64,000 bases of DNA from Squalus acanthias (lineage: Eukaryota), in contig CM059432.1 of assembly GCA_030390025.1 (NCBI GenBank), positions 64,606,001-64,670,000 of the forward strand, given 5' to 3'. How positions within the stretch are numbered: position 1 is the first letter of the stretch; every line of letters begins with the position of its first letter. Both the position numbers and the translations under genes were made by a program. A model generated the notes under the pieces. The model saw only the letters and a list, made by a program, of their open reading frames with translations. It did not search any database and was not told where the DNA came from. Of this stretch, positions 260 to 51,509 are shown piece by piece.

Positions 260-2238
260 GGAGATGCCGGTGTTGGACTGGGGTGGACAAAATTGAGAGG
301 TCGCACAACACCAGGTTATAGTCCAACAGTTTTATTTGAAATCACAAGCTTTCGGAGCTATCGATTTGCTCCTTCCTCAGGTGAAGTAAATTAGATACAG
401 AATCTCCAAAGCATATATAGATGGAAAACAAAGCATGTGTACTTTACAATTGCAGACCAATAAATTAAATCATCCTGACTATCTGCCGAGGTGTGATAAA
501 GTTAATTAAGTCAGCCAGGAAGGTACCACATCAAAGACATAGCAAGATACAACTGAGACAATGAGGTGTAGTCGCAGGGGTTCTAACGTGTCAAAAGCTG
601 CCGTCTGTATGTAAAACGAAAAGCTTTAACATTTTTTTACTTTTTTACTGGGAAAATTTTTACTTTTTTACTGGGAATCACATCTGTGAACAAGCTAACG
701 ACGACTCGAGTCCGGATCACGTCATGTATCATGACATAAACCCAAGATCCCGATTGAGACCGTCTTCATGAGTGCGGAACTTGGCTATCAGTTTCTGCTC
801 GATGATTTTGCGTTGTCGTGTGTTTCTAAGGTTGCCTTGGAGAACGCTTACCCGCAGATCCGAGGCTGAATGTCCTTGACTGCTGAAGTGTTCCCCGACT
901 GGGAGGTAACAATCCTGCCTGGCGATTGTTGCGCGGTGCTCGTTCATACGTTGTCTCAGTGTCTGCATGGTCTCGCCGATGTACCATGCCGCGGTGCATT
1001 CTTTCCTGCAACGTATGAGGTAGACAACGTTGGCCGAGTCACATGAGTATGTACCATGTACCTGGTGGGTAGTGTCCTCACGTGTGATGGTGGTATCTGT
1101 GTTGATGATCTGGCATGTCTTGCAGAGTTTGCCATGGCAGGGTTGTGTGGTGTCGTGGTCGCTGTTATCCTGAAAGCTGGGTAATTTGCTGCGAACGATG
1201 GTACTTCTGAGGTTAGGCGGCTGTTTGAAGGCAAGTAGTGGAGGCGTGGGGATGGCCTTAGCGAGGTGTTTGTCGTCATCGATGACATGTTGAAGGCTGC
1301 GAAGAACATGGCGTAGTTTCTCCGCTCCGGGGAAGTACTGGACGACGTAGGGTACCCTGTTGGTTGTGTCCCGTGTTTGCCTTCTGAGGAGGTCTATGCG
1401 ATTTTTCGCTGTGGCCCGTCGGAACTGTCGATCGATGAGTCGAGCGTCATATCCCGTTCTTACGAGGGCATTTTTCAGCGTCCGTAGGTGTCCATCGCGT
1501 TCCTCCTCGTCTGAGCAGATCCTGTGTATTCGCAGGGCTTGTCCATAGGGGATGGCTTCTTTAACATGGTTAGGGTGGAAGCTGGAGAAGTGGAGCATCG
1601 TGAGGTTGTCCGTGGGCTTGCGGTAGAGTGAAGTGCTGAGGTGTCCGTCTTTGATGGAGATTCGTGTGTCCAGGAATGAGACTGATTCTGAGGAGTAGTC
1701 CATGGTGAGTTTGATGGTGGGATGGAACATGTTTATGTTATCGTGTAGTCTTTTCAGTGATCCTTCGCCATGGGTCCAAAGGAAGAAAATGTCGTCGATG
1801 TATCTGGTATACAGCGTTGGCTGGAGGTCCTGTGCAGCGAAGAAGTCTTGCTCGAACTTGTGCATGAAGATGTTGGCGTATTGGGGTGCGAATTTGGTCC
1901 CCATGGCTCTTCCGTGTGTTTGGGTAAAAAAATGGTTGTCGAAGGTGAAGACATTGTGGTCAAGGATGAAGCGGATGAGTTGTAGGATGGCGTCTGGAGA
2001 TTGGCTGTTGTTGATGTTGAGTACTGAGGCTGTTGCAGCGATGCCGTCATCGTGGGGGATACTGGTGTAGAGTGCCGATACGTCCATCGTGGCAAGGAGT
2101 GTTCCTGGTTCAACTGGTCCGTGGGTGCTGAGTTTCTGTAAGAAGTCTGTAGTGTCGCGACAGAAGCTGGGGGTTCCCTGTACGATGGGTTTCAGAATGC
2201 CCTCGACGTATCCAGAGAGGTTCTCACACAGGGTTCCA
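260..2238 (-). mobile_element. Penelope-like retroelement (Neptune-type), 5'-truncated, with 3' UTR/pLTR
   Basis: Flanked by a 14-bp direct repeat TTCTGCAGTGACGC (246-259 and 2239-2252). Contains an RT + GIY-YIG ORF and a hammerhead-bearing 3' end. Confidence 0.92.
342..384 (-). ncRNA. Minimal type-I hammerhead ribozyme motif (Penelope family 1)
   Basis: Minus strand: UCAC-CUGAGGA-A-GGAGC(aaaucgaua)GCUCC-GAAA-GC-UU-GUGA. Conserved core, 5-bp stem II, 4-bp stem I, palindromic AAGCUU in place of stem III. Confidence 0.85.
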
Positions 2239-9785: not shown

Positions 9786-10691
9786 GGGGGGAATTTTAAC
9801 CCAAAAAAACAGGTGGGTTGGGGTTGTGTAAGAAATTAAAATCCAGACCAGAATCCGCCTCCATCCTGCCCATTTCCGGTTCTAACAGAGGCGGGATGGG
9901 GGGGCGGGCAGCCAACCCTCTCCCAGGAAGCGGCTTGTCCATTTAAATATTGTAATGAGGCTGCCATGCCTCAGATTTAACCACCATTTTAAATTTAACT
10001 GTAGCTGATGGGGTTTTGCAGGCCTCGTGAAAGCCACCAGCTAATGGAAGGCGAGGACTGCTGGATCCAGGAGGTAAGTGCCTCTACACTCACCTCCTGG
10101 ATGCAGCATCCCTGCCTAACCTAAACCCCGCAATCGGAGAACCTCCCCCACAATGCCTCTGATCTTCCCCCAGGCCTACGATTCCCCCATGAGGCTTACA
10201 CCCGCCCCCATGCTCCTCCGGCCCTCAGGATGTCGTCTGCTTAGCCCACCCCCCCCACTCCCCAACCGTGTTCCTCCTGGGCCTCTGATGAAGCTCCGGA
10301 CCCCATCCCTCTGCTCCTCCAGCCCTTTGATCTGCTCCAAAATCACCACCCCCCTCCGCCCCTCCAGCCCTCCGATCTGCTCCGGAACCGCCCCCCCCCA
10401 CCCCAGCTCCTCCGGTCCTTCGATCTGCTCTGGAACCCCCCCCCCCCCCCCCGCTACTCCAGCCCTCCCCGTGTTCCTCCGGCCCCCACGTAATCCCTCC
10501 CTCCCTCCTCTCTGCAGCCGAATGCCGCAGGCCTAACCACCCACTGCCAGCCAGCCTCTCAATCTGGCAGCTGCGGGTGGGAAACAGAAGTTTCCCATGC
10601 AAATCAGGCCCTGCCGTTAAATTAAGCAGGGCCTGCAGGAAACTGGTTCTTTTCCCCGCCCCCAACCCTCCAAGCTATTAAAATTCAGGCC
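9786..10691. mobile_element. Harbinger-type MITE with internal C-rich minisatellite
   Basis: Ends GGGGGGAATTTTAA / TTAAAATTCAGGCC, AAA on both flanks, repeated CGATCTGCTCC units at ~10300-10460. Confidence 0.7.
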
Positions 10692-16371: not shown

Positions 16372-18137
16372 CATGAATATCCCCATCCTCAATGATGGTG
16401 GAGCCCAACACGTGAGTGCAAAAGACAAGGCTGAAGCATTTGCAACCATCTTCAGCCAGAAGTGCCGAGTGGATGATTCATATCGGCCTCCTCCTGAGGT
16501 CCCCACCATCACAGAAGCCAGTCTTCAGCCAATTCGATTCACTCCAAGTGATATCAAGAAACGGCTGAGCGCATTGGATACAGCAAAGGCTGTGGGCCCC
16601 AACAACATCCCGGCTATCGTGCTGAAGACTTGAGCTCCAGAACTAACCGCGCCTCTAGCCAAGCTGTTCCAGTACAGCTACAACACTGGCATCTATCCGA
16701 CAATGTGGAAAACTGCCCAGGTATGTCCTGTCACAAAAAGCAGGACAAATCCAATCCAGCCAATTACGGCTCCATCAATCTACTCTCAATCATCAGCAAA
16801 GTGATGGAAGATGTCATCAACAGTGCTATCAAGCGACACTCACTCACCAATAACCTGCTCACCGATGCCCAGTTTGGGTTCCGCCAAGACCACTCGCTCC
16901 AGACCTCATTACAGCCTTGGTGCAAGCATGGACAAAGGAGCTGAATTCCAGAGGTGAGGTGAGAGTGACTGCCCTTGAGATCAAGGCAGCATTTGACCGA
17001 GTCTGCCATCAGGGAGCCCTAGTAAAACTGAAGTCAATGGGAATCAGGGGGAAAACTCTCCACTGGCTGGAGTCATACGTAACACAAAGGAAGATGGTTG
17101 TGGTGGTTGAAGGTCAATCATCACAGCCCCAGGACATCGCTGCAGGAGTTCCTCAGGGCAGTGTCCTAGGCCCAACCATCTTCAGCTGCTTCATCAATGA
17201 CCTTCCCTCCATCATAGGCTCAGTAGTGGGATGTTCGCTGATGACTGCACAGTGTTCAGTGCCATTCACAACTTCTCAAATAATGAAGCATTCCGTGACC
17301 GCATGCAACCAGACCTGGACGACATTCAAGCTTGGGCTGATAAGTGGTTGGTAACACTCGCGCCACAGAAGTGCCAGGCAATGACTATCTCCAAAAAGCG
17401 AGAGTCTAACCACCGCCCCTTGACATTCAATGGCATGACCATCGCCGAATCCCCTTCCATCAATATCCTGGGGGTCACCGTTGACCAGAAACTTAACTGG
17501 ACTAGCCACATAAATACTGTGGCAACAAGAGCAGGTCAGAGGCTAGGTATTCTGCGGCGAGTGTCTCACCTCCTGACTCCCCAAAGCCTTTCCACCATCT
17601 ACAAGGCACAAGTAAGGAGTGTGATGGAATACTCTCCACTTGCCTGGATGAGTGCAGCTCCAACAATACTCAAGAAGTTCGACACCATCCAGGACAAATC
17701 AGCTCACTTGATTGGCACCCCATCCACCATGTTAAACATTCACTCCCTCCACCACCGGCGTACCGTGGCTGCAGTGTGTACCATCTACAAGATGCACTGC
17801 AGCAACTCGCCAAGGCTTCTTCAGCAGCGCCTCCCAGACCTGCGACCTCTTCCACCTAGAAGGACAAGGGCAGGAGGCGCATGGGAACACCACCACCTCC
17901 ATGTTCCCCTCCAAGTCACACACCATCCTGACTTAGAAGTATATCGCTGATCCTTCATCATCGCTGGGTCAAAATCCTTGAACTCCCTACCTAACAGCCC
18001 TGTGGGAGTACCTTCACCACACTGCAGCGGTTCAAGAAGGAGGCTCACCACCACCTCCTCAAGGGCAATTCGGGATGGGCAATAAATGCTGGCTTTGCCA
18101 GTGATGCCCACATCCCATAAACGAATAAAAAAAAATA
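16372..18137 (+). mobile_element. Non-LTR retrotransposon of the CR1 group (Zenon-like), 5'-truncated, A-rich tail
   Basis: AGVPQGSVLGP, FADD, IYKAQVRSVMEYSPLAW. Frameshifted. Tail GAATAAAAAAAAA. Confidence 0.88.
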
Positions 18138-18240
18138 ATAAGAGGTTGAGCAAGGAGCCTAATGATAAACAAACTGTCCAAGAGAATGTAATTGAGAGGT
18201 CGCACAACACCAGGTGATAGTCCAACAGTTTTATTTGAAA

Positions 18241-18282
18241 TCACAAGCTTTCGGAGCTATCGAATGCTCCTTCCTCAGGTGA
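18241..18282 (-). ncRNA. Minimal hammerhead ribozyme motif (family 1), complete
   Basis: UCAC-CUGAGGA-A-GGAGC(auucgaua)GCUCC-GAAA-GC-UU-GUGA. Confidence 0.83.
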
Positions 18283-18285
18283 AGT

Positions 18286-18324
18286 CCTGAGGAAGGAGCA
18301 ATCGATAGCTCCGAAAGCTTGTGA
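18286..18324 (+). ncRNA. Hammerhead motif (family 1) lacking most of the 5' strand of stem I
   Basis: C-CUGAGGA-A-GGAGC(aaucgaua)GCUCC-GAAA-GC-UU-GUGA. Upstream bases are AGUC rather than UCAC. Confidence 0.7.
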
Positions 18325-18833
18325 TTTCAAATAAAACTGTTGGACTATAACCTGGTGTTGTGCGACCTCTCAATTTTGTCCACCCCAGTCCAACACCGGC
18401 ATCTCCGCATCAAGAGAATGTAACCAGAGGTCAAAACAAGAGATAAGCAAAGGAATGATCTCGTGGGATGGGGGAAGATTTTCAACTGAAAGTTGAGACA
18501 AAGAACTCGACATACCATTGGACACCTTGGTTTAGGAAGAGCCCTTATAGGTCAGATACTCCTCTCCATAATCTACCCTAGGCCCACCCCTAAAAAGAGA
18601 ATAAAAGAGATATCAAAAGAGCCTTTAGCACAGACGGTGAAGGGAAGGGAAGAGCTGTTCGCATATGCCAGCCGTCTGTCCTATTGGGACCGATACCAGC
18701 TGCTTGTCACGGTCGTATGTCTACTATGTCTATATTTGATTATATTTGGACTACCGCTCCTTAATAAAATGACCTATGACTCCTAATACCCTTTTGGGTA
18801 ATCTGTGTGTGACCTGTGATCCAAATCTTACAG

Positions 18834-49959: not shown

Positions 49960-51509
49960 ATTATGAGTGCTGGGTACAAGTGTTGGGGTTGCAGAGGGGA
50001 GTCATGAGCCAGGTGGAGAGCGGATAGCTCTTGTCTTCCAGCAGTCACCTTCGAGTTTGCTGTGGTGGCTGGAAGATTGCTGGCACACCGGACTGACACA
50101 GGATGAAGGCATTAAGGCTGCTGCCAGGATAGCGGGAATTGACCATCATAAAGCACTGCGCGAAATCCCACACCAACTGCACATTAAGAGAGTGGTAGCC
50201 TTTGCGGTTACGGAAGATCTCAGGATTATTATACGGCACCCGCAAAGCCACGTGTGGGCAATCGATGGCGCCCTGCACCATGGGGAAGCCTGCTATCCTA
50301 GCAAAGCCACATGCGCGCAGCCTGCTTCTCTCTGTTCAGAGAGACGACAATGTAATCCCTTCTCCTGGTGTAGAGAGCCTCAGTGACCTCCCGGCTGCAG
50401 CGATGGACAGCGAACTGTGAGATGTTAGTTACGTCTCCTGCTGCAGACTGGAAAGATCCACTGGCGAAGAAATTGAGGATCACAGAACTCTGCCACCTCC
50501 TGCAACCAGACCTTGACTGGGAGAGCCGTGTTCGCCCTGCTCTCAGGCTGCAGGTCTGGTTGCAGGAGGTGGCAGAGTTCTGTGACCTCCTCCTTGGTGA
50601 AGCATAGCCTCCTAATACACTGCTCTTCACTTAAATGGATATAAGAGAAGTGCTCTCGGAAGACCCTAGGTGAGTAAGGCCTCCTGTGGAGAGCCCCCCC
50701 GGCCCTCCTCCTCCTCCCTTTGCGCGCATTTTCTTGTCTTTGCTCCCTCCGCTCCCTCTCCTGAAGATATTCGAGCGCGAGGGGGATTGCCAGTAAAGCC
50801 CCATCACTGTGGGCAAGTGCTGTGAGCAGAAGCTTCTAAATAAGAATGAAGGCGTTCTCCACTGGCCCCAACACTCCCGGTTACCTTAGAACCTTGCAAT
50901 AAGTTAATAAAGCTGCTGGAGTTGCAGAAAGTTGCACAGAGTCAGTCAAACTGAACAAACATGTCAGGTGCAAGTGATTGCAGATGATCCCTTTAAATAC
51001 CGCTGTTGGAGCCTCCTTCCTGCTTGTCAACGCTTGCTCTGCGCGCCGTACTTAAGGCATGCTGGTAAGTGGAGCGGCGAAGTCCAAACTTGCAGATCGG
51101 TTGTCACGATCTGCTTCATTTCAATGATTTTCGTGATCGCTTCTATCGGCAGCACTGCCGGCCATCTGAAAATGGTGGCCACCGCAGGACCCGCCGCCAG
51201 CTGGCGGAAGCGTGCCAGCCGCCATTTTTTCACCCAATTATGGTGGCAAAGGGTGGCGATAAACCGCCTAATTTCTAGGCCTGAGTCTTCTGATGCACTG
51301 ATTGGCTGCTAAGCCAGCTTGATGACATCACTGTTGCTAGACACTGAGGATTCGCTTGATTTGGTGCCAGATTCAAGCAAAGGTCGGGACAGCTGAAATT
51401 GATACCACAGAGATCGCGAGATCTTTGTCGGCAGCTTTCTTCGAGGTCAGCACCGAGCACCGTCACTTCGCCGCTGACCGCAAATTCCGGTGTTTTTAAA
51501 GTAGAAAAA

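Follow-up and report, generated by a model that had tools for sequence, protein, structure and literature searches.

Introduction

The insertions of EN+ Penelope-like elements (PLE) have a known layout, in which an inverted, 5'-truncated copy is combined with a tail of 30-40 bp (PMC8557442, PMC3846280, PMC2377424). The insertions described in these papers contain head-to-head inverted pLTR, a tail at one end only that reaches the ORF start, and a target site duplication (TSD); in Adineta Pen2a the pLTR carries TATA and Inr motifs. Such motifs are reported for rotifer pLTR (PMC3846280), and the D. virilis Penelope promoter is described as internal and TATA-less (PMC2377424). The origin of the inverted ends and of the one-sided tail is called undefined in PMC8557442.

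Poseidon PAc, from Anolis carolinensis, has been studied in vitro (PMC11167929). As reported there, the enzyme cuts and extends both target strands, reverse transcription begins at two internal sites that delimit the tail, and the RNA template is uncleaved, hammerhead cleavage being unneeded. No difference in start site was seen between the strands, and the later integration steps are left unvalidated. The text consulted contains neither a mapped transcription start nor an account of run-off hairpins. PAc belongs to another clade than the element treated here, and its hammerhead overlaps the ORF start, whereas the present one ends about 90 nt upstream of it. A third related system is that of the non-LTR retrozymes, described as non-coding, pLTR-derived, hammerhead-bearing and PLE-dependent (bioRxiv 10.64898/2026.07.22.740005).

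The unit described here lies in a window of 64,000 nucleotides (the whole stretch of Squalus acanthias DNA that was analysed) and shares with the EN+ insertions all the features listed above. It differs from the insertions of those papers in that there is no ORF between the arms and both arms end within about 10 nt of a predicted transcription start. The layout is already known. A literature search, covering mostly open papers and their main texts, brought up no account of the promoter-bounded pattern with one site per strand, nor of twin priming in PLE; the genomic ends shown in Fig. S2 of PMC11167929 may have a bearing on the novelty.

Structure of the insertion

Positions are numbered in element sense from +1, the first hammerhead base, which is window 387 in the parent copy and 18285 in the unit (minus strand in both). 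The features are the following:

260..2238, minus strand: parent PLE copy, 5'-truncated and non-inverted, with part of the ORF (RT and GIY-YIG), 3' UTR and pLTR
412..419, minus strand: TATA motif at -32 in the parent pLTR (predicted promoter)
18179..18191, plus strand: left TSD copy, 13 bp (exact repeat and empty sites); its last 2 nt also match the element
18192..18285, minus strand: short arm without the tail, covering pLTR +1 to about +95 with +1 intact (alignment)
18241..18285, minus strand: complete minimal type I hammerhead motif (sequence, fold and the features given in PMC4209133; putative ribozyme)
18285..18286, no strand: head-to-head junction of the minus arm, complete to +1, with the plus arm, from +7 (sequence)
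18286..18410, plus strand: long tailed arm, pLTR +7 to about +132 (alignment)
18287..18324, plus strand: hammerhead core without the 5' strand of helix I (sequence, fold)
18376..18410, plus strand: PLE tail, 35 bp, in one arm only, ending just before the parent ORF start codon (+134)
18411..18423, plus strand: right TSD copy, 13 bp (exact repeat and empty sites); its first 2 nt also match the element

The insert (18192-18410, 219 bp) consists of two head-to-head pLTR arms, whose inverted parts, 18190-18279 and 18286-18375, are 90 nt long and 98% complementary. An earlier note on this DNA had read 18192-18285 and 18286-18410 as inverted copies of the Penelope end at 260-387, and the alignments agree: 18190-18285 matches window 291-387 at 96.9% and 18286-18412 matches window 381-254 at 98.4%. 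The tail is as described in PMC11167929 and PMC8557442.

The exact 13-bp repeat at 18179-18191 and 18411-18423 had been taken in that note for a TSD of the unit. Among seven paralogues of the host repeat, six contain the 13-mer as a single copy (1-3 mismatches) with contiguous flanks and without the PLE core, and the seventh has a deletion at the target-site position. Because six of the seven are empty sites, the TSD is real and the insert bounds are 18192-18410. The suspicion that a few of the repeated bases were element-end microhomology was also correct, the microhomology being 2 nt at each insert end (AA left, CA right). The proposal that a single integration event gave rise to a non-coding fold-back unit is supported.

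The note had further assigned a complete minimal hammerhead to the minus copy and one without the 5' side of stem I to the plus copy, and motif inspection against PMC4209133 leads to the same assignment; an Rfam search gave no hammerhead match. The candidate ribozyme of the minus arm comprises the helix I 5' strand (18282-18279), CUGAGGA (18278-18272), an extra A, helix II (18270-18253), GAAA and a palindromic AGCU, with the predicted cut between 18245 and 18244. Its core has C3-A9, G12-A14, A15.1-U16.1 and H17. As in the metazoan PLE minimal hammerheads of PMC4209133, helix I is short, an extra base lies between 9 and 10.1, before helix II, and G10.1-C11.1 and a palindromic 15.2-16.2 are present. 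The pairs described in that paper lie on opposite strands, 100-700 bp apart, whereas in the window unit the two motifs abut and helix II has 5 bp. The plus arm, starting at +7, retains one base of the helix I 5' strand, and an alternative helix of 7 bp would place G, not U, at 16.1.

The isolated minus hammerhead folds no better than its shuffles (z -1.23). A read-through RNA of the unit is predicted to form one long hairpin (-171.7 kcal/mol, z -23, 0/200 shuffles), in keeping with the ~90-bp dsRNA hairpin foreseen in the note, and this fold would pair off both catalytic cores. The commonest subfamily differences within the hammerhead fall at N7, in loop II or as G-U pairs in helix II, and no two-sided change was seen, in a tally where the search patterns fixed part of the motif. 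The hairpin of the unit hits a microRNA model below threshold. Two other hairpins, at window 50475-50592 and 10033-10128, also hit microRNA models below threshold and do not match the PLE copy. Hairpins of the present kind can be misfiled as MITEs, retrozymes or microRNA precursors.

Parent element

The long copy at 260-2238 is flanked by its own 14-bp duplication (246-259 and 2239-2252). Long copies are numerous and near-identical, with about 100% identity in the best 40 of 1,069 candidates. The parent unit has 3,141 bp, occurs in partial tandems and contains a single ORF of 892 aa with its ATG at +134. Pfam recognizes RVT_1 above the cut-off in this ORF and gives no endonuclease hit; a C-terminal GIY-YIG-type domain with CCHH and a CX4CxxC linker before it were read by eye. 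A CX2-5CxxC linker and the CCHH features are given for Neptune and Nematis in PMC8557442. By these motifs the parent is a Neptune-type PLE, "type" since the linker motif occurs also in Nematis and the assignment is by motif, not by tree. The partial tandems forming pLTR, the inverted 5' copies and the tail at one end are those of EN+ PLE.

The predicted transcription start (+1, window 387) lies in an Inr-like context. The TATA and Inr motifs were called by their consensus sequences.

Recurrence and variable junctions

With the whole unit as query, near-full-length matches were obtained in 40 of 40 cases, these being the best 40 of 1,260 candidates and a set biased toward the query. A junction pattern gave 819 strand matches, whose first 100 rows represent 84 loci by hand tally. 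Extrapolated from this ratio, about 690 loci carry such a junction; units whose motifs are mutated are not in this figure, and a sister family (CUGACGA core, short loop II; 11,513 exact motif matches) is almost entirely absent from it. With this number, the one-off truncation considered in the earlier note does not hold.

In position order, 30 rows less 4 double listings gave 26 loci, and 25 of these have a duplication of 11-15 bp, versus 1.5% of cross-paired flanks. In the pooled set, 113 of 120 duplications measure 11-15 bp, with a mode of 12, microhomology counted in.

The junctions vary. The commonest type is found in 18 of the 84 loci of the hand tally and that of the window unit in 2; the reference haplotype alone contains seven junction types, and the +5 junction occurs in six subfamily haplotypes. 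The two arms belong to the same subfamily: differences are shared by both arms in 65 cases and private to one in 21 (gap columns counted). These data bear on the alternative that whole hairpins are transcribed at master loci and mobilized by the PLE enzyme as a discrete, non-autonomous mini-element. In its favour are the hundreds of units, nearly identical, ~200-240 bp long and each with its own TSD. However, several junction types coexist in one haplotype and single types return in other haplotypes, alleles occur in both arms together, the long inverted copies that the autonomous family leaves have the same geometry, and the fixed internal structure from master copies that defines a discrete family was not found. 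The mini-element is largely refuted and we consider it very improbable. Of the recurrent, ribozyme-delimited mini-element that the note had offered as its second option, the recurrence stands and the discrete, self-propagating nature does not, as the tabulated junctions differ inside one haplotype. A third reading, absent from those two options, is the best supported, namely that the autonomous element gives rise to such units again and again as a by-product.

The concordance between arms is imperfect in four units, which differ at N7 of the core from one arm to the other. At their centres (L178, L179, L181, L184) one arm has CUGAGGA and the other CUGACGA, all joined at +8; a mutation picked by the search pattern or a repair at the junction may explain them. 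At the centre of L103/L104 and L111/L112 both arms reach +1 and are separated by 8-9 nt of filler derived from the element, which suggests short priming before the final join.

Outer ends of the arms

One arm ends near +95-105 and the other near +130-145. The difference between these ends is the known PLE tail. A tailed arm is paired with a tail-less one in 23 of 26 position-ordered units and in 124 of 129 pooled units, two samples chosen by different patterns; this near-obligate pairing, counted here, is a further difference from the EN+ insertions described in PMC8557442, PMC3846280 and PMC2377424. The long inverted copies have the same geometry: of the insertions at 19 loci, 9 show both outer ends, and 8 of these conform. 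Their inner breakpoints are scattered and either arm can be the longer one.

The pairing can be compared with single priming followed by fold-back, in which a tailed cDNA reaches +1, its 3' end folds back to prime the second arm and the tail boundary becomes the point of attachment to the other target end. PMC3846280 reads junction palindromes as self-priming of this kind, as proposed for Adineta PLE, and it would suit the subfamily alleles shared by both arms; the commonest junction (18/84 loci) can be drawn as a tiny fold-back. Nevertheless, fold-back requires that the tailed arm be the complete one, whereas in the 26 position-ordered loci the arm that reaches +1 has the tail in one half (13) and lacks it in the other (13). 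Neither the loci in which each arm reaches +1, some with added bases at the join and some without, nor the long copies in which either arm is longer agree with it. Fold-back is accordingly held to be decidedly unlikely. The 13:13 split fits the strand result of PMC11167929, from which the coupling of the two sites within one event does not follow. A join of the tail end to +1, as in a circular or tandem monomer, was not noticed in 30 G-preceded loci.

The inner end at +1

As exact matches are followed upstream of +1, their number falls from 7,748 to 7,062 at -1, 6,861 at -2 and 6,669 at -4, that is, by 686 at -1, 201 at -2 and about 96 each at -3 and -4. The drop at -1 is almost wholly true truncation (all 30 sampled ends preceded by G, and 28 of 30 preceded by A or C). 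The drop at -2 comes partly from +1 ends with a chance T and partly from another subfamily, 23 of 30 being truncated by eye. Arms that start at or near +1 and run on into the ORF are rare (2/206). Half of the rows sampled from the sister CUGACGA family (15 of 30, by eye; L237-L266) have +1 as their first base, and such stubs may be a major class there.

The base at which the ends pile up opens the hammerhead and lies 42 nt 5' of the predicted cut site. A TATA motif stands at -32, -31 or -30 in 13 of the 14 commonest spacers, though the spacers differ, and +1 lies in an Inr-like context, so that the TATA/Inr spacing is held while the spacer diverges. One subfamily has a 3-nt duplication before +1, which places its TATA at -34 (L207-L236). 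Leaving out L233, which was assigned to another haplotype, 6 of its 29 rows end at -3, a position that brings the TATA spacing back to -31. A marker allele occurs in 8 of 15 copies without the duplication, in none of the 29 with it, and in 8 of 30 +1-start copies of that loop type. From this last count, some +1-start copies of the loop type may come from the duplicated subfamily, and the shift to -3 is perhaps not exclusive.

These observations point to +1 as a probable transcription start, against which stands the TATA-less promoter of D. virilis Penelope (PMC2377424). That +1 is a site of RNA processing or arrest (cleaved by a nuclease, used as a splice or branch point, or halting the RT at the base of helix I), the other steps being unchanged, is judged unlikely. 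The intron 3' end at the helix I 5' end in D. virilis (PMC4209133) speaks for it, any site read from the local sequence would also move with the 3-nt duplication, and a G-specific cap mark is lacking. On the other side, the TATA/Inr spacing is kept while the spacer diverges, RT would leave helix I at +1 rather than enter it, and no AG precedes +1 in the subfamily spacers seen, for which reason a splice acceptor was rejected.

The cap mark was sought as an untemplated G in 78 of 90 stratified loci, 12 having been dropped as continuing copies or long partners. There was no G excess (weighted last bases: C 183, G 137, T 80, A 26); the added junction bases are G/C-rich and not G-specific, C being at least as common as G. 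The first 30 loci had nearly all shown C after the short arm, but these were the best matches to a C-bearing query; stratified samples had G, C, A and T at this place, and the idea of a cap-derived G was abandoned as evidence.

A smaller group of 5' ends falls at the hammerhead cut site, about 170 purine-preceded ends versus 74 one base upstream (299 x 17/30; 135 x 11/20), taken without denominator, against one control base and over several families (L312-L341). Several of these ends are explained by microhomology with the partner arm, and the excess may represent a minor cleaved-template class or microhomology.

This modest excess, together with a conserved minimal hammerhead with tolerated changes only, is what can be said for a unit bounded by hammerhead self-cleavage, as in retrozymes. 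Both arms of the window unit, however, reach 36-42 nt 5' of the cut site, the locus contains no tandem repeat and the hairpin would mask both cores. Retrozymes as described are head-to-tail tandems of at least two units, each with a complete hammerhead (bioRxiv 10.64898/2026.07.22.740005), whereas the window unit is head-to-head with one complete motif. Self-cleavage is refuted as the boundary of the window unit and barely credible as a general account, though a minor cleaved-template class may exist. "Ribozyme-delimited", as the earlier note had it, is correct in geometry, the boundary being the 5' edge of the hammerhead (+1), and incorrect as to the cleavage site (+42/+43). Because the boundary is +1 and not +42/+43, the copied RNA would be uncleaved. 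A trans-cleaving hammerhead from +8-joined units aimed at +1 was also considered and rejected, with a helix III of 2 bp and a core masked in the hairpin.

Proposed route of integration

The unit is probably made anew at each integration, by a staggered double cut, priming from both strands, run-off at the predicted start and joining. The first step would be a pair of endonuclease cuts, one in each target strand and offset by about 12 bases. The 3' ends so exposed would then prime reverse transcription in the 5' leader of an uncleaved transcript, at the two start sites that bound the tail, one per strand. The in vitro behaviour of Poseidon PAc (PMC11167929) speaks for these steps, though for an element of another clade. 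Both cDNAs would run off at the predicted transcription start, the first hammerhead base. Subsequently, their ends would be joined head to head by 0-2 nt of microhomology or a few added bases, with the loss of 0-10 nt from one arm. As for function, the unit probably represents a dead end of integration rather than a working ribozyme cassette. Whether one or two RNA serve as template was addressed with rare changes shared by the arms; there are only 4, all of them alleles seen elsewhere.

LINE-1 twin priming is similar in that both target strands prime, the junction has microhomology and the inversion lies within one TSD. The LINE-1 primers copy neighbouring stretches of the RNA, whereas here the same part would be copied by both, from two fixed sites to one fixed end.

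A more specific reading, possible but rather doubtful, regards the arms as paired "strong-stop" DNA. The mRNA would begin with the hammerhead, one complex would cut ~12 bp apart, the strands would always receive opposite (tail-proximal and tail-distal) leader start sites and both would run off the RNA start. Full-length copies would then need a tandem read-through transcript or a template jump, and the stubs would map the start of each subfamily to the base.

The run-off reading would help to explain how PLE make inverted ends. Given the hundreds of young stubs with fixed outer and inner ends, it also yields sharp predictions for the existing in vitro system, namely the start site, the stagger and a single start site on each strand.

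Host and target sequences

The host sequence of the insert, window 18138-18832, is a dispersed repeat, which resembles an LTR with a primer-binding-like motif after it. Next to it, at about 18126-18139, lies the end of another repeat. Among the other units, the same or similar target sequences were seen at unrelated loci (L011, L028, L030, L186, L188, L190, L201 and others), which suggests repeated hits on one site of a common repeat.
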